Position numbers and translations under genes: made by a program. Shown here in pieces: positions 10,851-62,431 of a stretch of 64,000 nucleotides of DNA (its first letter is position 1; the number at the start of each line of letters is the position of its first letter). The notes beneath the pieces were generated by a model. The model made no database searches and had not been told where the DNA came from. It saw only the letters and a program-made list of their open reading frames with translations. This stretch comes from Candidatus Uhrbacteria bacterium (GTDB lineage Bacteria; Patescibacteriota; Patescibacteriia; UBA9934; GWF2-40-263), in contig JABMNY010000003.1 in NCBI GenBank assembly GCA_013204385.1, positions 14,270 through 78,269 of the forward strand, given 5' to 3'.

Positions 10851-10856
10851 CAAAAA

Positions 10857-10886
10857 CACCGCTCAGACATCTGAGCGGTGTTTTTT
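10857..10886. terminator. Bidirectional intrinsic terminator between convergent genes
   Basis: caccgctcagacatctgagcggtg hairpin followed by TTTTTT; A-run on the other side. Confidence 0.7.
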
Positions 10887-13168: not shown

Positions 13169-13202
13169 CAAAAAGAGAGCGTACAGCTCTCTTTTTTTCA
13201 TC

Positions 13203-27224: not shown

Positions 27225-27244
27225 TCCCCACCCCACCCCTTGCG

Positions 27245-27288
27245 TTCGGTTTTTGTTCGGTTCATAATACGAACATAAAGCGAACACC
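27245..27288. promoter_or_regulatory. 44-nt imperfect dyad (GTTCGG-N5-GTTCGG...CGAACA-N5-CGAACA) 15-55 nt upstream of lexA: candidate LexA autoregulatory operator(s)
   Basis: gttcggtttttgttcggttcataatacgaacataaagcgaaca; inner GTTC-N7-GAAC. Confidence 0.4.
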
Positions 27289-27302
27289 TAACGAGATACT
27301 GT

Positions 27303-27917
27303 ATGCCACAACTCACAAAAAAACAGTCAGCTGTGCTCGCGTTCATTCGCACACACATTGAAGAGAACGGGTATGCCCCCTCCTACAGAGAAATCGCTGA
27401 CGCATTCGGACTCTCTTCCCCCGCAACCATTCATGGCCATGTCCAGTCTCTCGTTGAAAAAGGACTTATCGTAAATGGAGATGATGGTGAAGCACGTTCA
27501 ATTGAACTCGTTCAAGAAGCCGCATCAGGATCCTCTATCCTTCTCCCCTTCATCGGACTCATTACCGCAGGAGAACCAATAGAAGCTGTCCAAGATAATG
27601 AAACGATGGCTGTCCCTGTAGACTTTGTTCTCGATGGTGCCAACTCATTTGTCTTACGTGTAAAAGGACGCTCCATGATTGAAGACGGAATTCTTGATGG
27701 AGACTATGTTGTCATCGAACGTAATCCTTCCCCACGTAACGGAGAGGTTGTCGTCGCACTTCTGGACAATGCCTTTGCAACGCTCAAGCGTTTTTACCGA
27801 GAGACAAATCGTATTCGTCTTCAACCAGCCAACAGCTCAATGGATCCAATCTACGTCCAAGACTGCATTATCCAAGGGGTGGTCCGAGCCGTCATCAGAA
27901 AGTTCCAACCCATCTAA
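27303..27917 (+). CDS. lexA: LexA repressor
   Basis: N-terminal wHTH; C-terminal S24 peptidase with Ala-Gly cleavage site region and Ser...Lys dyad (VKGRSM...ATLKR). Confidence 0.9.
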   Translation: MPQLTKKQSAVLAFIRTHIEENGYAPSYREIADAFGLSSPATIHGHVQSLVEKGLIVNGDDGEARSIELVQEAASGSSILLPFIGLITAGEPIEAVQDNETMAVPVDFVLDGANSFVLRVKGRSMIEDGILDGDYVVIERNPSPRNGEVVVALLDNAFATLKRFYRETNRIRLQPANSSMDPIYVQDCIIQGVVRAVIRKFQPI

Positions 27918-28380
27918 TAATAACATCCAACCGTCCTTAGACTCGCGAAGCTAAGGACGGTCACCAGCTGACAATTTGAGATCCCATGATGAGACGCGTA
28001 AGGGATCACGCGTCTGACCGTGGGATTTTAGTTTGCCAATTTTCAGAATCATCGAGGCTAAAGGTCTCGCTACAATACGCGGTAACAGAGAAGACGTTAT
28101 TCTGCTTCGCTCAGAATCGTCACGCTCGTGAAACCCTCATTGTGGCCTGACCTTCATCCTTTGATGAACCTGATCCCTTAATTCACTTACTCTTTACGTT
28201 CTATGTCTACCGCCACTACACTACGCCACCACTCCAACACATTCGCCTTCCTTCCACGACAACGGGATCAACGTTTCATCAAGAGTCTTCGTGCGATCAA
28301 AATCCGAACGAGTCGCCGAAAAATCAGACAAGTCATTCGTCAAATGATCGACCACCGATCACTTAGCACCATCTAATCCT

Positions 28381-28629
28381 ATGCACGAAATGCTTAACGA
28401 TCCTATAGACGTCACTGTCGCATTCAAAGATAATCGCGTCTTTCCACGCACCATGAGATGGAACGAACGTGACTACAAAATCGAAACCGTAAACCTTGTG
28501 CATACCGCTCGCGAAGGTCAAAAACGTATATTCTATTTCTCTGTGTCAGACACAACAAATTATTTCAAACTCAAACTCGACCCAGAAATGCTCGAATGGC
28601 GATTAGTCGAACTCTATACAGATGGATAA
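28381..28629 (+). CDS. Hypothetical 82-aa protein in SOS neighbourhood
   Basis: ORF only; no motif recognised. Confidence 0.4.
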   Translation: MHEMLNDPIDVTVAFKDNRVFPRTMRWNERDYKIETVNLVHTAREGQKRIFYFSVSDTTNYFKLKLDPEMLEWRLVELYTDG

Positions 28630-28650
28630 GAAAAAAGCACCTGATAGGTG

Positions 28651-29133
28651 CTAGCTGAGCGTATGTTCGAAATGAATGTTCGAACCTTTGACGGGTCTGA
28701 ACCCAAGCTTCTCGTAGAGGATTCGTGCCCCCTCACGTTCCTCCTCGGAAACGAGCTTGAGCAGAGAGATCTTTGGACGCACCTCCCCTGCCTGTTCGAT
28801 CAAATGTTCCATGACAGCGCGACCAAGCCCGCGACCTTCTCCGCGAAACTCAGGGTGCACCAGAACATATTCAACGTCCCCAACCCCCTTGCGCCAGTCG
28901 TAGCTGATCTTGAGCAAAGCAACAGCAACAATCTGTCGCGCACCTTTCTCTCGAATAATGCTAATGCGCGTTCGATTTGGATCCATGAGACGCGCCTGAA
29001 ACAGCGCGTCTTTGTAGTCGAGTGGACCCGACCGAAGCAGATCTTGCCCATGCTCATTCAGGAACGTTATGCAGTCTCGATAATCCCAGAGTTGAGCTTT
29101 CGAGTGAACAAATCGTTCTGGATCAAATGCCAT
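28651..29133 (-). CDS. GNAT-family N-acetyltransferase
   Basis: Start at MAFDPERF with GGAGGTG RBS; VHPEFRGEGRGLGRAVMEHLIE acetyl-CoA motif A. Confidence 0.75.
   Translation of the reverse strand: MAFDPERFVHSKAQLWDYRDCITFLNEHGQDLLRSGPLDYKDALFQARLMDPNRTRISIIREKGARQIVAVALLKISYDWRKGVGDVEYVLVHPEFRGEGRGLGRAVMEHLIEQAGEVRPKISLLKLVSEEEREGARILYEKLGFRPVKGSNIHFEHTLS
29106..29118. promoter_or_regulatory. GAAC-N5-GTTC palindrome ~65 nt upstream of dinB start: candidate Cheo-like SOS box
   Basis: gaacaaatcgttc. Confidence 0.35.
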
Positions 29134-29182
29134 GAGACACCTCCGTATACAAACCCTAACATTCCAGAGCACATCGTCAACT

Positions 29183-30388
29183 ATGCATCGCATCATCCTT
29201 CACATTGACATGAACTCGTACTTTGCCTCTGTAGAGCAACAGGCGAACCCTTTTTTGCGTGGAAAACCGATTGGGATTACAGGAAAAGACCAAGAGCGCT
29301 CCGTCGTCGCAACCGCCTCTATTGAAGCTAAGAAACTTGGGGTGAAGACCGCTATGTCTACCTGGGAAGCAAAGAAGATTTGCCCTTCACTTATTCTCTA
29401 TGCCGGCGACCCAGAAAAGTACTCAGACATCATGCATCGCTTCAACGCAATTTACCAGGAGTTCACTCCACATGTGGAACCATTCAGTGTAGATGAAAGT
29501 TTTTTAGATATAACAGAAGAGGCGGAAGATTTTTTTGGAGCGACGTATATGGCTCAAATGATCCGTACACGTCTTAAAGAAGAACTCGGGAATCACATCA
29601 CCGCCTCCATCGGTATTGCCCCAAACAAACTCATGGCAAAGCTTGCGTGTGAGACTGTGAAACCAAGTGGACTCACTGTTGTTCAACCAGAAGAACTTAT
29701 CGACTTGTTGAACCGTTGTAAACTTGATGACCTCTGCGGAATCGGTCCCCGTATTCTTAAACGTTTACACGCACTTGATATTAAAACATTCGCAGAACTA
29801 CGTGCATGCCCACTTGAGGATCTTCAACGTGAATTTAAGAGCTACGGTCTTTGGCTTCACGAAGCCGCTTACGGACGAGACTCTTCACAAGGAGTGAATG
29901 CGAATTCTTCAGACGCAAAATCTTACGGACATTCCTATACACTGCCAGAGAATACTCAAGATCAAACAGTACTCAAACGTTATCTCTTTGGACTCGCCGA
30001 CAAAGTTGGTTGGCGCATGCGTCGAGATGGAGTTGTTGCGCGTCGCATTACCGCCCATGTGCGGTTTGGAGATTTTACAAGTCATAGTGAACAACGAACG
30101 GTGAATACTCCAACAGCAGACGGCATGGATCTTTTTAAAATTTCCTGGAACATCGTAAAACCCCTACTCACAAGCGATGTACGTCTTGTCGGTCTCTCCG
30201 CCTCTATGCTTACAAAAAATCCTAGCCAACCGTCCCTATTCAAAAAAGAACGGAACATGCAGTCCGTCCTATGTGCGCTCGATTCTCTCCAACACCGCTA
30301 TGGCACAGGTGTCTGGAAACGAGGTGCAACACTCCCCCTCAACCTCAAACAACGCTCAAGCGGCTTCCATTTTGATCATGAAGTGTAG
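29183..30388 (+). CDS. dinB: DNA polymerase IV (Y-family)
   Basis: Start at MHRIILHIDMNSYFASVEQ; SVDESFLD catalytic motif. Confidence 0.9.
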   Translation: MHRIILHIDMNSYFASVEQQANPFLRGKPIGITGKDQERSVVATASIEAKKLGVKTAMSTWEAKKICPSLILYAGDPEKYSDIMHRFNAIYQEFTPHVEPFSVDESFLDITEEAEDFFGATYMAQMIRTRLKEELGNHITASIGIAPNKLMAKLACETVKPSGLTVVQPEELIDLLNRCKLDDLCGIGPRILKRLHALDIKTFAELRACPLEDLQREFKSYGLWLHEAAYGRDSSQGVNANSSDAKSYGHSYTLPENTQDQTVLKRYLFGLADKVGWRMRRDGVVARRITAHVRFGDFTSHSEQRTVNTPTADGMDLFKISWNIVKPLLTSDVRLVGLSASMLTKNPSQPSLFKKERNMQSVLCALDSLQHRYGTGVWKRGATLPLNLKQRSSGFHFDHEV

Positions 30389-30542
30389 AGAGTGAACTTA
30401 AGAAGTTCCTCTTCTTAAGTTCCGAACGAAGCGAAGTGATCTGTTCTACAGATCATGAAGTGTAGTGAGCGAGTTCATAAAGTTCCTCTTTATGAATTCC
30501 GAACGGAACGCCATGACTTGTTCTACAGATCATGAACTCTAG
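30374..30542. repeat. 2.2 tandem copies of a 77-bp unit beginning with the last 5 codons+stop of dinB (gatcatgaagtgtag), each unit carrying a 12-bp-stem hairpin with conserved TTCCTC loop
   Basis: Units at 30374, 30451, partial at 30528; stems gaacttaagaag/cttcttaagttc vs gagttcataaag/ctttatgaattc differ but stay complementary. Confidence 0.7.
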
Positions 30543-31093
30543 CCTCCAAACTCACCAATCACTTTATGCGTTCCTGGACCCGCGTCTCCGTCGTAGGCAT
30601 TTACCGTCACAATAATATGTCCATACCCCGAATAATCCTCTGTGTCTGGCGCCTGCCACTCAATCACAAAATATCCATCCTCGTCCGTGGTCATTTCCCC
30701 AAGAGAAAAGAACTCATACGGGAGTCGACGTAATAACCATACTTGATAATAATGCACCTCCCGATCAATCTCTGGGAGTGTCATTTTCATTTCCACGTAA
30801 TACTTGCCATCTTTTTCTCCTCGGCTCGCCGAGCCAACACGCGCATTTGATGATTTCCAATACAACTCCGCATCCCGACTCACTGTATCAATGGCTCCAT
30901 CAATCACCGCTTGCGAAATTGGATCTGGTTTCAACACGTCGACAATCGACGACACAACCTCTTCCTCAGGAATCGGCTCCGCCCGAAACCATTTCACCGC
31001 AATAATAAACACCAAAAACAACACGATCACAACGCCCACAGAACCAACTGCGGAGCTGACGCGGACTATTTTCTTATGCTGTTTTTGTCCCAT
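30539..31093 (-). CDS. Hypothetical N-terminally anchored protein
   Basis: 184 aa; TM VGSVGVVIVLFLVFIIAV. Confidence 0.45.
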   Translation of the reverse strand: MGQKQHKKIVRVSSAVGSVGVVIVLFLVFIIAVKWFRAEPIPEEEVVSSIVDVLKPDPISQAVIDGAIDTVSRDAELYWKSSNARVGSASRGEKDGKYYVEMKMTLPEIDREVHYYQVWLLRRLPYEFFSLGEMTTDEDGYFVIEWQAPDTEDYSGYGHIIVTVNAYDGDAGPGTHKVIGEFGG

Positions 31094-31096
31094 ATT

Positions 31097-32245
31097 CTAA
31101 GCTGCCTTCTTCACCGCTTCTGCCACAACGTCCGCAAGTCCAGGAACAAATGGAGAAGGCATAATTGTCTCGGCTGTTGGATCTGGAACCAGACCAGCTA
31201 ATGCATGCGCGGCAGCAACACGCATGGCGGGTGTAATCTTTCGTAGCCGTCCTTCAAGCGCCCCTTTGAAAATTCCAGGAAATGCTAAGACGTTATTTAC
31301 CTGATTTGGGAAATCTGATCGTCCTGTCGCAATAACAAACGCTCCCCCCTCCTTTGCAATGTCCGGCATAATCTCAGGAATAGGGTTCGAGAGCGCAAAG
31401 ATGATCGCTCTCGGTGCCATTGTTTGTACCATTTGTGCAGTGACAAGTCCTGGCTGGCTCACCCCAATAAAAACGTCTGCCCCAAGAAGCGCATCCTCTA
31501 ACGTTCCTGTGCGTCCTTCTGGATTAATCCGAGCAGCAAGCTCTTCTTTGTACGTGTTCATTCCTTCTCGACCAGGGGCAATGATTCCTTTTGAATCCAA
31601 CATAGCTAACTTCTGCATCCCTGCTTCAAACAATAAATGCGCGATCCCCATCCCTCCTGCACCAGCTCCAGAAATAACAACAGAAATATCTTCGATGTTC
31701 TTCCCAACCACTTTGAGTGCATTCAAAAGCCCAGCCAAAACCACCACAGCCGTTCCATGCTGATCGTCATGCATCACCGGAATATCAAGTTCTTCAATCA
31801 ACCGTCGCTCAACTTCAAAGCACGCCGGTGCAGCGATATCTTCAAGATTAATTCCTCCAAAACCTGGAGCAATGCGCTTTACCGTCTCGACAATCTCATC
31901 GACATCTTGTGTATTCAAACAAATGGGAAACGCATCGAGTCCTGCAAAGCGCTTAAACAAAATAGCTTTCCCTTCCATGACAGGAAGACCAGCTTCTGGT
32001 CCAATATTCCCAAGCCCAAGCACGGCAGACCCATCAGTTACAATGGCAACCGTATGTCCTTTCATGGTGAGATCCCAGGCACGCTCCTTATCTGCGGCGA
32101 TTACGCGACAAGGTTCCGCCACACCAGGGGTATAGGCGATTGAAAGATCCTCTTTCGTCTCAAGCGGAACACTCGACTTAATTTCAAGCTTTCCTCCATA
32201 CCGCTTATGCATGTCCAATGACGCAATATCGTAATTCATAATCAA
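31097..32245 (-). CDS. NAD(P)-dependent malic enzyme (short form)
   Basis: YTPGVAEPC, GAGAGGMGIA Rossmann motif. Confidence 0.9.
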   Translation of the reverse strand: MIMNYDIASLDMHKRYGGKLEIKSSVPLETKEDLSIAYTPGVAEPCRVIAADKERAWDLTMKGHTVAIVTDGSAVLGLGNIGPEAGLPVMEGKAILFKRFAGLDAFPICLNTQDVDEIVETVKRIAPGFGGINLEDIAAPACFEVERRLIEELDIPVMHDDQHGTAVVVLAGLLNALKVVGKNIEDISVVISGAGAGGMGIAHLLFEAGMQKLAMLDSKGIIAPGREGMNTYKEELAARINPEGRTGTLEDALLGADVFIGVSQPGLVTAQMVQTMAPRAIIFALSNPIPEIMPDIAKEGGAFVIATGRSDFPNQVNNVLAFPGIFKGALEGRLRKITPAMRVAAAHALAGLVPDPTAETIMPSPFVPGLADVVAEAVKKAA

Positions 32246-32251
32246 TAAGTG

Positions 32252-32815
32252 CTAATTGAAAATATCTGGTGGAAGTTTGTCTGGCCATCTTTTTGTCTCT
32301 CGAGCAATCGCAAATGCCCAAACGAGATGTCCAATGCGCACATTTCCTTTTTCAAACGGACAAATTTCCTGAAACTCTCTGCAAAACTCAGTCGGAGTCA
32401 TGCGATGAAGATTATTCTGATCAAGAGGCCCAGCCAATTCCTTTAAAAACCTCTTCATTAAGCGAGGAACTTCCTGAGCAGATGCTCTTCGATTTCCATT
32501 TGTAGCCTTGATTTCGCTTGTCCGATACCCTTTATTTTGTTTCTCAATGAATTCAGCCCACTTCAAAAGACATTCTTCCAGTTGATCCTTTGTGAGAGGA
32601 GCCCCTTCAATATACCCTGTCGCTAACTGTTTCGCCTCAAGATACGCTTGCGCGAACGCTTCTATTCTCGCACGTTCTACTGTGTCTTGATTTTCTGATT
32701 GCACAAGAATCAATTCTCTATCACACAGATCTAATCCGTCTGGAAAATGGACTGTGGAGTGCTGTTCGGCAGTTGAAACCGGTCCTTTATGATCATGCAT
32801 ATCAAAGTTCATCAA
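32252..32815 (-). CDS. Fic/DOC-family protein with degenerate Fic motif
   Basis: CPFEKGNVRIGHLV resembles HPFx[DE]GNGR. Confidence 0.55.
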   Translation of the reverse strand: MMNFDMHDHKGPVSTAEQHSTVHFPDGLDLCDRELILVQSENQDTVERARIEAFAQAYLEAKQLATGYIEGAPLTKDQLEECLLKWAEFIEKQNKGYRTSEIKATNGNRRASAQEVPRLMKRFLKELAGPLDQNNLHRMTPTEFCREFQEICPFEKGNVRIGHLVWAFAIARETKRWPDKLPPDIFN

Positions 32816-34904
32816 TATCTCTTAAAAAACTCATTCCGGTGGTTGGTTTCTTTTTCACGCGTTCTCCTAAATCATCAAACACAATCGTGGGTCCCTCATC
32901 GACCCACTCATCGTTTGAGAACGATCCGTACGAAGGCTTTGACACACTCGCCTTTAATTTAATCTCTTCTAAAAGCTCCCTTGGAAGCTCTTGTAAGAAC
33001 ATCGAAGGCTGACTAAGCATGAGTGTATCGTATCCAGAGGTAATCGGATAGGTATAAAACAAATGCTTTTTGGCTCGTGTTGTGGCGACATAAAAGAGTC
33101 GTCGCTCTTCCTCAAGTCCTCCTTTTTCATCAAGTGCCGCTCCAATTGGGAACTTTCCGTCAACGAGATGCATGATAAAGACCGCAGACCACTCCAATCC
33201 TTTTGACTGATGAATTGTAGAAAGCACCATCTTCTCTTCTTCAAACACGCTCCCATCCTCACGGAGTGCTCCATACTCCCCTGTGAGCGCGACCTCATCT
33301 AGGAATTTCTGCAAACTTGTATATCCTTCCGCAAACAGGGCAAACTGTTCGATATCCTCAAGACGATCCATAAAATCAGGATACTCCGCCTCGATGTAGT
33401 CTCGATAGTCTCCCGTGACAACAGCGCGAATGAGCTCCGAAGGTCGTTCTTCATCCCTCATGAGTACAAGGGTCTTTGCAAGATTATTCCATCCAATCTG
33501 TGCACGCTTTGGAACACGCGGCTGTGAATGCAAAATTTCATCAAGAGTCGTGAATTGTTTGAACACGGATGCCATTTTTTCCGCAGTCACAAGTCCGACA
33601 CCTGGAATCAATGAGAGAACGCGCATCCACGCCATCTCGTCTTTTGGATTCATTTTCACCCGCAAATGCGCAACCAGATCTTTCACATGCGCGCGCTCAA
33701 AGAACTTGAGTCCCCCGCGATACTCATACGGAATATCTCTACGCATCAATTCAAACTCCAACTGCTGAGAATGAAATGCTGCACGAAACAACACGGCTGT
33801 TTCTGAAAGCGGAACCCCCTCGTCCCGCAGGGCTAAAATGCGCTGTGCAATAAACTGTGCTTCTTGTGCCGCATTCTGTGCTGGCACAATGTTTGGTTTC
33901 TCAAAAGACGCCAGAACGGCCCCAAGTTCTTTTTTAAACTGTTCTCGATTTTGAAGAATCGTATTGTTTGCGACCGCCAAAATCTCAGGGGTGGAACGAT
34001 AGTTCGTAACAAGTCGAAATGTTTTTGTATTGTTGTAGGTTTGCGGAAACCCAAGAATATTCTTGATCTCTGCCGCACGAAAAGAATAAATCGACTGTGC
34101 ATCGTCTCCGACCACTAATACATTTCCATGTACACTCGCAAGCTGTCGAATAATATCCGCTTGAATGACATTCGTATCCTGATACTCATCCACCAAGATA
34201 TACTCAAACTGCTGTCCGAGTCTTTGACGCACCCCCTCGTTTGTAAACAACAGCTCTCGCAACTTCAAAAGCAGATCATCAAAATCCATCGAATCTGACT
34301 CACGCTTGCGAGACGCATACAGTTCCGCAATACGCTCAATCGTCGAACTCATCTCAATAAAACTTGGATAGCGCGTCTCAAGCACATCGATCATCGGTTG
34401 CCCAGAGTTTTTCGCGTAACTAATAATTCCATTGAGCTTAGCTGGCGATGGAAATCGTCGTGAAGTGGTATCGATCTTAAGCGCCTTGATACAGACCTTC
34501 ACTAGTGCCTTTGCGTCTTCCTGATCGAGAATTGTGAAGTTCGATGTGTGCCCAATCTCAGGAGCGTAAATCCGAAGCAGTCTGTTCGCAATCGAATGGA
34601 ACGTTCCACCCCACAATCCTTTGGGTTTACGACCAAGCAAACTCTCCACGCGCTCCATCATTTCTTTTGCCGCCTTGTTCGTAAACGTCACAAGCAAAAT
34701 ACTCTCTGGACTCACCCCTCGCTCAAGCAAATACGCCACACGATAGGTAATGGTCCGAGTCTTTCCGGACCCTGCCCCTGCCAACACGAGAGCTGGCCCA
34801 TCCCCATGCAAAACCACCTCTAATTGCTCCGCATTCAATTCCTTTTGATAATCAATGTTTGCCTTCGATAGGTCAAAATCATCATGTAACACGAATTCTT
34901 TCAT
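32802..34904 (-). CDS. uvrD: ATP-dependent DNA helicase UvrD/PcrA
   Basis: Walker A GAGSGKTRTITYRVAYLL, helicase motifs; ORF-track start is a TTG; chose ATG (MKEFVLH). Confidence 0.9.
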   Translation of the reverse strand: MKEFVLHDDFDLSKANIDYQKELNAEQLEVVLHGDGPALVLAGAGSGKTRTITYRVAYLLERGVSPESILLVTFTNKAAKEMMERVESLLGRKPKGLWGGTFHSIANRLLRIYAPEIGHTSNFTILDQEDAKALVKVCIKALKIDTTSRRFPSPAKLNGIISYAKNSGQPMIDVLETRYPSFIEMSSTIERIAELYASRKRESDSMDFDDLLLKLRELLFTNEGVRQRLGQQFEYILVDEYQDTNVIQADIIRQLASVHGNVLVVGDDAQSIYSFRAAEIKNILGFPQTYNNTKTFRLVTNYRSTPEILAVANNTILQNREQFKKELGAVLASFEKPNIVPAQNAAQEAQFIAQRILALRDEGVPLSETAVLFRAAFHSQQLEFELMRRDIPYEYRGGLKFFERAHVKDLVAHLRVKMNPKDEMAWMRVLSLIPGVGLVTAEKMASVFKQFTTLDEILHSQPRVPKRAQIGWNNLAKTLVLMRDEERPSELIRAVVTGDYRDYIEAEYPDFMDRLEDIEQFALFAEGYTSLQKFLDEVALTGEYGALREDGSVFEEEKMVLSTIHQSKGLEWSAVFIMHLVDGKFPIGAALDEKGGLEEERRLFYVATTRAKKHLFYTYPITSGYDTLMLSQPSMFLQELPRELLEEIKLKASVSKPSYGSFSNDEWVDEGPTIVFDDLGERVKKKPTTGMSFLRDIDEL

Positions 34905-46604: not shown

Positions 46605-46684
46605 AGAAAAATGAAATGATTATCGTCAGTATTTTATCACTCTTTGCTCGAAACAAAAAACAGGGTCGGAACCCTGTTTTTTGT

Positions 46685-47272
46685 TTAGATATTGAATCGG
46701 GCGAAACGACGAATTGAAATGTTTTCTCCGATACTCGCAATTTTGGATTTTACATACTCATCAATGGTCTGATCTTCATCTTTGATGAATGATTGTTCAA
46801 GAAGAACTATCTCAGAATACCATTTATTCAGCTTCCCTTCGACAATCTTTGCGATAACATCTGAAGGTTTTGCTTGATTCTCCATCTCCTTAGTAAAGAT
46901 CTCCATCTCTTTTTCAACGAGATCCATTGGAACATCTTCACGCTTGAGGTAGAGCGGTTCTGTAGCACTAATGTGCATCGCGACATCGTTACAGAAATCG
47001 ATGAATGCTTCATTGCGCGCAACAAAATCTGTTTCGCACAAGATTTCTACCATCGCTCCCAGTTTTCCATTCGAATGGATGTATGCATGCACACGACCTT
47101 CATTGGTTTCTCGTGAGGATTTCTTTGCTGCCTTCACCATCCCCTTCTCACGAAGAAGTTGGGAGGCTTTCTCTAAATCTCCTGTGGCTTCTTCCAAAGC
47201 TTTCTTGGCATCCATCATGCCAGCACCCGTCATAGATCGAAGCTCTGCGACGAGTTTTGCGTCAATACTCAT
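46685..47272 (-). CDS. tsf: Elongation factor Ts (short form)
   Basis: LRSMTGAGMMDAKKAL. Confidence 0.9.
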   Translation of the reverse strand: MSIDAKLVAELRSMTGAGMMDAKKALEEATGDLEKASQLLREKGMVKAAKKSSRETNEGRVHAYIHSNGKLGAMVEILCETDFVARNEAFIDFCNDVAMHISATEPLYLKREDVPMDLVEKEMEIFTKEMENQAKPSDVIAKIVEGKLNKWYSEIVLLEQSFIKDEDQTIDEYVKSKIASIGENISIRRFARFNI

Positions 47273-48593: not shown

Positions 48594-48678
48594 CCGCAAT
48601 GAGAAAAGCGTTCTTCGAGTCTGGAAGAACGCTTTTTTATTAGCTACACTATTAAGAGCATAAAAAGGCTCTAACACT

Positions 48679-50411: not shown

Positions 50412-51319
50412 CCATCATGGAGGCTCTTCAATGGGCAAACAATAAACTCCGCAAAGCCGATGTCGACTCTCCTATGCTCGACGCGGAGATTTTACTTGCC
50501 CATACACTGGACACTTCGAAAGCATGGCTCTTCTCTCATTTTGCAGACACATTAAAAACCCATCAGCAAGAGCAATTTTCTGAACTGGTTGATCTACGAG
50601 AAAAACGAGAACCGATCGCGTATCTCGTAAAGAAAAAGGCATTTTACGGACGGGATTTTCATGTCAATAAAAACGTTCTCATTCCAAGACCAGAAACCGA
50701 AACACTGATTGAGCTTGCAATCACCCTCCTTGATGAGACGGACCCAGAACGCACACTGCTCGTAGACATCGGAACAGGTTCCGGAGCAATCGCTGTGACG
50801 CTCGCTGTGGAAACATCCCTTCCCGTCATCGCAATCGATATAGACGAAGCTGCGCTTCAAACCGCAAAGAAGAACGCAGAACTCCTTGCCCCAGATACGG
50901 CAGTGGATTTTCAACAAGGAAATCTCGCCGAACCACTTATCCGTATATTCAAAACCATTCGAGGGCAAACAAACGTACAAACCTCTTCCATTTATCCATT
51001 TAAAACGCTCCTCATCACTGCCAACCTTCCGTATATTCCAGAGTCTCGTATGGAACGCCTTCAACCAGAAGTCCGTGACTTTGAACCACGTCTGGCGCTC
51101 GCCGCCGGAGCAGATGGACTAGACGCGTACTGGGAACTCTTTCGTCAACTGCGTGCGGATAGAAAAATTCTTCCGCGTGAATGCACAGTCTTAATCGAAA
51201 TGGATCCAGAACAACGACACTCCTGCGAAAAACTCATCCTCCACAATTTCGCGCAAGCAACCCTCACCACCCACAAAGACCTCCGAGGCGACGACCGCGT
51301 CATCGAAGTACATATCTAA
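50408..51319 (+). CDS. prmC: Release factor glutamine N5-methyltransferase
   Basis: NLPYIP (NPPY) motif, DIGTGSGAIA motif I; 4-nt overlap with upstream gene. Confidence 0.85.
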   Translation: MTIMEALQWANNKLRKADVDSPMLDAEILLAHTLDTSKAWLFSHFADTLKTHQQEQFSELVDLREKREPIAYLVKKKAFYGRDFHVNKNVLIPRPETETLIELAITLLDETDPERTLLVDIGTGSGAIAVTLAVETSLPVIAIDIDEAALQTAKKNAELLAPDTAVDFQQGNLAEPLIRIFKTIRGQTNVQTSSIYPFKTLLITANLPYIPESRMERLQPEVRDFEPRLALAAGADGLDAYWELFRQLRADRKILPRECTVLIEMDPEQRHSCEKLILHNFAQATLTTHKDLRGDDRVIEVHI

Positions 51320-51345
51320 AAACTGACCACACGGTCAGTTTTTTG

Positions 51346-60720: not shown

Positions 60721-60730
60721 TCTCCATAAA

Positions 60731-60758
60731 AACACCCGCCTTCTGGCGGGTGTTTTTT
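60731..60758. terminator. Bidirectional intrinsic terminator
   Basis: aacacccgccttctggcgggtgtt + TTTTT. Confidence 0.7.
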
Positions 60759-62400: not shown

Positions 62401-62403
62401 ATA

Positions 62404-62431
62404 AAATCAGCCCAAAACGGGCTGATTTTTG
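62404..62431 (+). terminator. Intrinsic terminator after dcd
   Basis: aaatcagcccaaaacgggctgattttt. Confidence 0.65.

Follow-up and report, generated by a model that had tools for sequence, protein, structure and literature searches.

Why should a translesion polymerase gene be followed by two tandem copies of a hairpin-bearing unit that opens with the gene's own last codons? The question is raised by a 64,000-nucleotide (nt) stretch of a Candidatus Uhrbacteria genome (contig JABMNY010000003.1, positions 14,270 to 78,269 of the forward strand), referred to below as the window, the host being a member of the Candidate Phyla Radiation (CPR). Here dinB, encoding DNA polymerase IV, and a convergent gene of 184 amino acids (aa) are separated by an array of 77-bp units at positions 30374-30542. 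The answer that best fits the comparative evidence, and to which about even confidence is attached, is a stem-loop cassette of the 3' untranslated region (3' UTR), similar to repetitive extragenic palindromes (REPs), that would have been gained, lost, and duplicated by slippage between repeated copies of the dinB tail. About as much confidence goes to the view that, in the window, an older cassette of ~77 nt, tied to the dinB 3' end in some Candidatus Uhrbacteria, was doubled in tandem within this lineage. Taken as a whole, the feature is a modest, locus-bound addition to the small hairpin insertions and 3'-UTR stem-loops, and not a new kind of system.

The anatomy of the array is clear. Tandem Repeats Finder reports positions 30374-30536 as 2.1 copies of a period of 77, with 79% matches and no indels, at a score of 200, by far the highest in the window. 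The original prediction, made from the letters of the sequence, had described 2.2 tandem copies at 30374-30542 with a 12-bp hairpin in each, units beginning with the dinB tail (DHEV*), and a partial copy at 30528 holding the stop of the convergent gene, and all of this was borne out by Tandem Repeats Finder and a repeat search. The two full units are 77% identical (76.6%), and their 18 differences are confined to the linker, the stem arms, and the spacer. Each opens with the same 15-nt head, GATCATGAAGTGTAG, at 30374 and 30451, of which the first encodes the last DinB codons (D-H-E-V-stop), and a third head, GATCATGAACTCTAG, begins at 30528; the stop of the convergent open reading frame (ORF) is the CTA at 30539-30541. 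Hairpin 1 of unit 1 begins 5 nt past the dinB stop, and the final 2 nt of the unit are already the start of the 3' arm of hairpin 2. This second hairpin, which takes its 3' arm from the next copy of the tail, had been overlooked in the prediction, as had the restriction of the doubling to one lineage. Two details also needed amendment. The loop, given as TTCCTC, is in fact the 5-nt TTCCT, one C having been counted twice in a 12-6-12 split. Likewise, the stems were said to differ at 5 positions yet remain complementary; pairing is indeed kept and the 5' arms of hairpin 1 do differ at 5 positions, but the 3' arms differ at only 4, with four pairs fully compensated and one A-T pair changed to G-T. 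The coordinates are collected in the table.

Features of the tandem array and of its surroundings, in window coordinates
Feature	Position	Strand	Description
Unit 1	30374..30450	+	dinB tail GATCATGAAGTGTAG, linker AGAGT, hairpin 1, CGAACG linker, 5' arm and loop of hairpin 2
Hairpin 1, unit 1	30394..30422	+	GAACTTAAGAAG-TTCCT-CTTCTTAAGTTC; arms 30394-30405/30411-30422; 12 bp, 100% complementary
Linker block CGAACG	30423..30428	+	recurs at 30500-30505 in unit 2; invariant in 5/5 aligned cassettes
Hairpin 2, unit 1	30437..30455	+	TGATCTG-TTCTA-CAGATCA; 3' arm extends into next dinB-tail copy
Unit 2	30451..30527	+	head GATCATGAAGTGTAG and tail TGTTCTACA same as in unit 1
Hairpin 1, unit 2	30471..30499	+	GAGTTCATAAAG-TTCCT-CTTTATGAATTC; arms 30471-30482/30488-30499; 11 Watson-Crick pairs and 1 G-T
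Hairpin 2, unit 2, weakened	30514..30532	+	TGACTTG-TTCTA-CAGATCA; 5 Watson-Crick pairs, 1 wobble, 1 mismatch
Third, partial copy	30528..30542	+	GATCATGAACTCTAG; would read DHEL*; its CTAG contains the stop of the convergent gene
dinB (DNA polymerase IV, 401 aa)	29183..30388	+	P0001 100% identical; Pfam IMS/IMS_C
Convergent 184-aa gene	30539..31093	-	no Pfam match; adjoins malic-enzyme gene in relatives (synteny)
Seven perfect hairpins with A-run and T-run	10852-10885, 13170-13196, 46651-46686, 48604-48636, 51318-51343, 60728-60757, 62403-62429		canonical bidirectional terminators

The array is not a product of chance, because the + strand of the region folds with a z-score of -5.1 relative to shuffled sequences and only ~0.4 perfect hairpins of at least 10 bp occur in shuffled windows; the structure prediction proposed as a check thus favored the hairpins, and RNAalifold recovered both of them. 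Nor is the array an artefact of assembly, since its units differ at 18 sites and an identical array is present in an independent contig (L001) from the Joint Genome Institute (JGI).

How the array came to lie between the two genes is suggested by the dinB 3' flanks of eleven further protein clusters, compared here under locus numbers (L). In five lineages (L002, L044, L045, L046, and L048), there is no spacer between dinB and the convergent 184-aa gene, and the two stops overlap by 4 nt as CTAG or CTAA; in L002, for example, the junction runs from GATCATGAACGCTAG directly into TCTCCAAAC. In L037-40, dinB overlaps a different convergent gene (398 aa), again by the 4 nt CTAG. The third copy in the window, GATCATGAACTCTAG followed directly by CCTCCAAAC, matches this non-carrier junction, and the 154 bp upstream of it are therefore read as an insertion and the third copy as the displaced original end of dinB. 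Likewise, because the DinB C-terminus, ...RSSGFHFDHE[VIL]*, is kept in more than 100 CPR homologues, the GATCATGAA within the tail is ancestral coding sequence. These junction comparisons make the array an insertion whose arrival copied the tail of dinB, with its polarity set by the non-carriers; both the insertion into an overlapping-stop junction and the identity of the third copy as the original dinB end had escaped the original prediction. In the window, the convergent gene and the malic-enzyme gene keep their syntenic places. Carriers of the cassette all end in DHEV (GTG or GTT, then TAG), non-carriers all in DHE[I/T/R], and the downstream tail copies of the carriers (ATT TAA, ATT TGG, and CTC TAG) resemble the dinB ends of non-carriers. 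Since the first copies are all GT(G/T) TAG and the downstream tails are non-carrier-like, the pattern points to a single origin of the cassette.

The cassette was sought by pattern scans of 185,579 species genomes, of metagenomes, and of viral contigs, and with a covariance model (R1). The genome scan returned 27 matches, of which 26 were chance occurrences in coding regions of unrelated phyla and one was real, namely Candidatus Uhrbacteria CG10_48_16 (L011), where it was the single match in the whole genome. Two of six metagenome matches were real, both from the Crystal Geyser population of L011 and both at the same locus; all ten matches among viral contigs were due to chance. Within the 64-kb window, three mismatch-tolerant motif searches found only the two units, and the covariance model, run over 142 kb (the window plus Uhrbacteria loci, the related loci making up ~78 kb), recovered the known cassettes only, its weak hits being a terminator and noise. 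These scans establish a single-locus distribution: outside the window, the cassette is confined to the dinB 3' locus of four other Uhrbacteria lineages (L011, L050/51, L042/43, and L049). The further copies for which a search had been proposed are thus absent from the rest of the window but present, as homologous cassettes, after dinB of other Uhrbacteria.

The carriers vary around a shared architecture, in which the dinB tail is followed by the linker TGAGC (as opposed to the AGAGT of window unit 1), hairpin 1, the linker CCGAACGAAnCG, and hairpin 2, the latter of the general form TGATCTG(G)-loop-(C)CAGATCA with a 3' arm that is the start of the next tail copy. Apart from the window, carriers have ~1.2 or ~1.4 copies, or a remnant. 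L011, L032, and L033 hold one full unit and a truncated second unit, and the hairpin 1 stem of L011, GAACGCATAAAG/CTTTATGCGTTC, is perfectly paired around a TTCCT loop. On the strength of the split between DHEV and DHE[I/T/R], two more DHEV proteins were looked up, and both proved to have the element (L050/51 and L049). In L050/51, a 1.2-copy cassette carries a perfect 12-bp hairpin 1 with an unrelated stem, AACAAACAACAG-TTCC-CTGTTGTTTGTT; in L042/43, also with 1.2 copies, hairpin 1 has decayed and hairpin 2 is strong; and in L049 only a remnant is left. Among all carriers, the window genome alone has two full copies. Comparison of the orthologous dinB 3' regions, another proposed check, therefore turned up paired hairpin cassettes at the same locus in several Uhrbacteria.

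These differing stems bear on whether the hairpins are maintained. In an alignment of five cassettes, standard pairs occupy 92.6% of cells, a share that falls to 37-45% once the 3' partners are displaced by 1-3 columns; both sides have changed at six pairs, and none of 500 control shuffles reached the observed covariation score or percentage paired. RNAalifold recovered hairpins 1 and 2 independently. By eye, the four intact hairpin 1 stems pair in 48/48 cells, with more than one pair type at 9/12 positions, and hairpin 2 of L042 displays a compensatory change from G-C to A-U. Little or no variation is seen in the loop, in the CGAACG block, or across the 24-nt junction between units, in contrast to the drifting stems and spacer. 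Stems that have evolved by compensation, fully paired though different, alongside a conserved loop and linker argue for a constraint on the hairpin, and the sequence comparisons support a constrained structure. The original prediction had claimed such a constraint, and the cassettes of L011 and L050 bear it out, with other stems perfectly paired and TTCC(T) and CGAACG kept. Single copies with no conserved hairpin elsewhere, the outcome it named as contrary, are not what was found, as the cassettes of other Uhrbacteria keep a paired hairpin. Precedent for such change exists, as the 3' hairpin stems of Bacillus cereus terminators also evolve by compensatory change (PMC5381666).

The distribution of the cassette further suggests that its copy number is fluid. 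On the DinB tree, carriers fall into three clades interleaved with non-carriers, and copy numbers among close relatives are 0, ~1.2, ~1.4, and 2.2. For example, the carrier L011 and the non-carrier L002 have DinB proteins that are 97.4% identical and dinB DNA that is 94.4% identical, which implies a recent gain or loss. Each window unit shares 83% identity with the unit of L011 but only 77% with the other, and the differences of the L011 unit form a mosaic of both, as would be expected from unequal exchange within an older two-unit array. A plausible course of events is that the cassette inserted exactly where the stops of dinB and the convergent gene overlapped (CTAG or CTAA), and that insertion duplicated the last 9-15 nt of dinB, so that both reading frames would have stayed intact. 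The new first copy would supply the final Val-stop of DinB (GTG TAG), and the old copy would stay with the convergent gene. Together, the direct tail repeats and the hairpins may promote replication slippage or unequal recombination; slippage would either double the insert or remove it precisely, which would bring back the I/T/R codon and the junction of overlapping stops. Slippage or unequal recombination at the tail repeats would thus account for copy numbers from 0 to 2.2 and for the doubling in the window.

Inserts flanked by short direct repeats are excised precisely or duplicated by replication slippage, as is known for the precise excision of Tn5 and Tn10. The likeness is that a hairpin-bearing insert lies between direct repeats of 9-15 nt, it is present or absent among near-identical relatives, and its loss restores the original junction exactly. 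Unlike Tn5 and Tn10, no transposon is involved here, and the mechanism is deduced from sequence patterns.

What, then, might the hairpins do? The cassette would be transcribed as the 3' UTR of dinB and, on the antisense strand, as that of the convergent gene, and its stem-loops there may act in the manner of REPs, either by blocking 3' exonucleases or as partial, non-canonical terminators or insulators between colliding convergent units. REPs have been described as non-canonical 3'-UTR hairpins between convergent genes that are reported to terminate transcription partially and to block 3'-5' decay (bioRxiv 10.64898/2026.03.23.713779). Like the REPs and bacterial interspersed mosaic elements (BIMEs) of E. 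coli, the cassette is an extragenic, imperfect palindrome that lacks a U-tract, sits just past a stop, often between convergent genes, and is sometimes tandem. REPs also carry a conserved 5' tetranucleotide of the GTAG type. In the window, L011, and L050, hairpin 1 is preceded at a distance of 5 nt by a GTAG of which the dinB stop is part, with TTAG in its place in L042, a likeness that may simply reflect the stop context. REPs are GC-rich, exist in hundreds of dispersed copies, and are associated with a REP-associated tyrosine transposase (RAYT, a Y1 transposase); the cassette is AT-rich, is restricted to a single locus in each genome, and includes a copied stretch of the gene upstream.

Several observations weigh against a REP-like role in the 3' UTR. 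Both strands fold about equally well, and the strand and any RNA-level role are putative. Most relatives have no spacer at all, which implies that the cassette is dispensable. The covariation statistics are weak, as just four intact and partly related stem variants contribute to them, and hairpin 1 has decayed in L042. Template switching at the DNA level could keep palindromes perfect in the absence of selection, although the conserved loop is not explained in that way. A mere exonuclease block would need neither the strongly conserved loop nor the CGAACG block nor the 24-nt junction between units, and it leaves their conservation unexplained. The G-U pairs point both ways on the strand: four wobbles favor the + strand, whereas the L042 stem, which has decayed, contributes two that favor the minus strand.

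Among the alternatives, the one that survives best, though still considered unlikely, is a selfish or neutral palindromic insertion resembling a MITE (miniature inverted-repeat transposable element), a REP, or a Rickettsia palindromic element (RPE), which would have entered the only tolerated spot, between the two overlapping gene ends, with a target-site duplication and later doubled, with no function for the host. The duplication would then be the 9-bp GATCATGAA and the element GTGTAG...CTACA, and its pairing would stem from DNA-level self-correction or from a need of mobility. MITEs and RPEs are small non-coding hairpin insertions with short direct repeats that can alter a protein terminus (PMC10969869), and like the cassette they are tolerated at or inside the gene ends of reduced, gene-dense genomes and have target-site-like direct repeats. 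Direct repeats of the dinB tail, 9-15 nt in length, do flank the insert in all carriers, and the empty site is seen in L002, L044, L045, and L048; carriers are distributed patchily over the DinB tree, most relatives can dispense with the cassette, and the same genomes hold other palindromic insertions, both at the same junction and in frame within dinB. The short inverted termini TGTAG/CTACA of the window and L011 clade would also fit, but they are absent in L050 (which ends in CCTCCA) and L042 (CCTTCA), leaving terminal inverted repeats that are weak and not conserved across carriers. Also contrary to this reading is the single locus per genome, always the same one, in that neither the genome and metagenome pattern scans nor the covariance model found dispersed copies, and no source element or transposase was found in the nearby ORFs examined. 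Finally, the loop and the linker are more conserved than the stems, contrary to what palindrome correction at the DNA level would produce.

The other palindromic insertions deserve description in their own right. A different palindromic element of 87-105 nt occupies the same junction between dinB and the convergent gene in L003 (4225-4311), L041 (2764-2849), and L050 (~2875-2975), with arms of the form GTCATCC-CGAACGTAGTGAG-GGATCTCC. A similar motif, GTCATTCTGA..CCGAGCGCAGCGAGG..GAAGAATC, was met by chance in the Acidobacteria locus L006 (near 338, minus strand), which suggests a widespread class of repeats. In addition, a near-perfect palindrome of ~83 nt lies in frame inside the dinB of L050 (2239-2321), with a homologous insert in P0010/L045. 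It adds ~25 residues (…GVRSPVSGFSRSQTFSIKPETGDLTP…), is reminiscent of RPEs, and scores as miRNA-like in Rfam solely through its long stem.

A second alternative, that the hairpins are stacked canonical intrinsic terminators serving dinB and the convergent gene in both directions, is suggested by their position and by stable hairpins on both strands, but appears quite improbable. Rho-independent bidirectional terminators are also stable hairpins between convergent genes whose stems change by compensation, and the L050 stem, A-rich in its 5' arm and T-rich in its 3' arm (AAACAAACAACAG/CTGTTGTTTGTT), resembles the window terminator at 46651-46686, a weak hit of the covariance model. However, no T-run follows the window hairpins, with CGAACGAAGCGA as the tail on the + strand and ACTCTCTACACT on the minus strand, and the flanking A-run and T-run are both missing. 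The seven canonical terminators of the window have GC-rich cores, whereas each window hairpin 1 has an AT-rich stem in which 3/12 pairs are G-C, and a terminator scan of 28000-33000 found none inside 30374-30542. These seven, all outside the array, indicate that the organism uses standard terminators, in contrast to the cassette. The second suggestion of the original prediction, "stacked bidirectional terminators", is not supported in its canonical sense, given the lack of a U-tract on either strand.

Nor is it probable that the cassette is a recognition element, in which a protein or an RNA would bind the duplicated tail, the CGAACG linker, and the CU-rich UUCCU loop, itself similar to an anti-Shine-Dalgarno sequence. 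The roles envisaged include a target of an SOS-linked regulator, a small RNA derived from the 3' UTR, and a switch responsive to ribosomes that terminate translation at the stop of dinB. Such recognition would account for a loop, linker, and unit junction that stay invariant while the stems drift, and hairpin 2 and the first two tails have alternative ways of pairing with one another. GTTC/GAAC tetramers are denser at 30381-30540 than anywhere else in the window, with 11 per 154 nt where the median is 1 and the 99.9th percentile 9, and CCGAAC is a half-site of a conserved lexA operator. Yet the repeat reaches no more than -3.7 bits on a position-weight matrix derived from 14 lexA-operator boxes, as compared to ~32 for real boxes, and neither GTTC-N7-GTTC nor GAAC-N7-GAAC occurs within the cassette. 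No promoter-like site lies inside the repeat, Rfam provides no match, the mini-ORFs of the minus strand are not conserved in frame, and the outer helix between tails is not conserved in L050 or L042. A more elaborate version, of similarly slender probability, sees in the cassette no passive stem-loop but a module dedicated to regulating the SOS polymerase gene. The duplicated tail would serve as a decoy through which hairpin 2 or the tail-tail helix reports ribosome termination 5 nt upstream of hairpin 1, the UUCCU loop and CGAACG would contact a trans-acting factor, and copy number (0, 1, or 2, through slippage at the palindromic tail, TGATCA/TCATGA) would tune DinB output from one close strain to another.

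Several smaller candidates were examined and discarded. A LexA box in the repeat was rejected, the best site reaching -3.7 bits against the ~32 bits of the operator boxes. Mini-ORFs on the minus strand, for which unit 2 and L011 offer an ATG behind a Shine-Dalgarno-like GAGGA of the loop, were rejected by eye, as unit 1 lacks a start and L050 is in another frame. A read-through extension of DinB was likewise rejected, being short, not conserved, and closed in most cassettes by a second in-frame stop (TAG TGA). In a comparison with L011, L042, L049, and L050, most cassettes have that second stop directly after dinB, as opposed to TAG AGA in unit 1 of the window (30386-30391), where the TAG TGA version is found in the non-coding unit 2. 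In the window region, the only Rfam hit was a chance one below threshold (snoZ163, with 18 bits where the gathering score is 39), and Rfam returned none for the L050 and L003 cassettes; ARAGORN found no tRNA or tmRNA in the window.

More remote still, and very improbable, is the notion that the tails are remnant att sites, left where an element that targets the dinB 3' end and brings its own copy of the dinB tail integrated, possibly twice, and then decayed to leave attL/attR-like tails and a 62-nt scar. The first tail, GATCATGAAGTGTAG, is unusually uniform across carrier clades while non-carriers vary at synonymous sites, and synteny breaks directly downstream of dinB in L042, L047, and L037-40. 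Against this, no integrase, recombinase domain, or island lies beside the repeats in the window, L042, or L050, the supposed scar is conserved and structured across lineages, and the synteny of the window is intact. Finally, a recent neutral tandem duplication of an unconstrained hairpin, the refuting scenario of the original prediction, is scarcely credible: two full copies do occur in this genome only, with fewer in relatives, but the units share just 77% identity, each lying nearer to the unit of L011 (83%), every change in the stems has been compensated, and a paired but different stem exists in lineages with a DinB only ~70-76% identical to that of the window.

The wider neighborhood has features of its own. 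The DinB of the window corresponds to the database protein P0001 from Candidatus Uhrbacteria, with the start MHRIILH at 29183, and the longest dinB ORF starts at 29132. The conserved gene order lexA, a 57-59-aa ORF, an 82-aa ORF, and dinB forms an SOS-like cluster (window 27303-29196; L002, L003, L041, L044, and L045), in which the two small ORFs have no Pfam match. A GNAT acetyltransferase gene on the opposite strand (28651-29196) lies between the 82-aa ORF and dinB in the window, as also in L042, L048, and L050. Upstream of lexA, the window carries a highly conserved promoter and operator (27244-27290), specifically TTGCGT-17-CATAAT overlapped by GTTCGGTTTTTGTTC (GTTC-N7-GTTC), after which comes GAACATAAAGCGAAC (GAAC-N7-GAAC), and the same arrangement is found in L002 (1457-1500), L003 (1727-1770), L041, L044, L045, and L049. 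It is a LexA box of the direct-repeat type and consistent with the direct-repeat motif cited for Patescibacteria (PMC7739468); the Gram-positive LexA type, GAAC-N4-GTTC, is absent near lexA and dinB. Further hits of the lexA matrix in the window are at 28292, 12354, and 36819, all on the minus strand. The GTTC/GAAC tetramer is also present in the conserved blocks of the cassette, namely the loop, the stem base, CGAACG, and TGTTCTACA. Downstream, synteny is broken at the 3' end of dinB in L037-L040 (2673-2676), L042, and L047; dinB is followed by a C-5 DNA methylase gene in L047 and by an uncharacterised + strand gene in L042.

The locus provides a clean natural example of how convergent genes with overlapping stops can gain a spacer through duplication of a gene tail, leaving the frames unharmed, and of the loss, retention, or doubling of that spacer among near-identical strains. 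It also ties a small 3' motif of conserved structure to a translesion polymerase gene, in an uncultivated CPR lineage where 3'-end formation and RNA regulation have been little studied. Should it be true that the hairpins affect the stability of the dinB mRNA or transcriptional read-through, copy number would be a simple tuner of the levels of a mutagenic polymerase.

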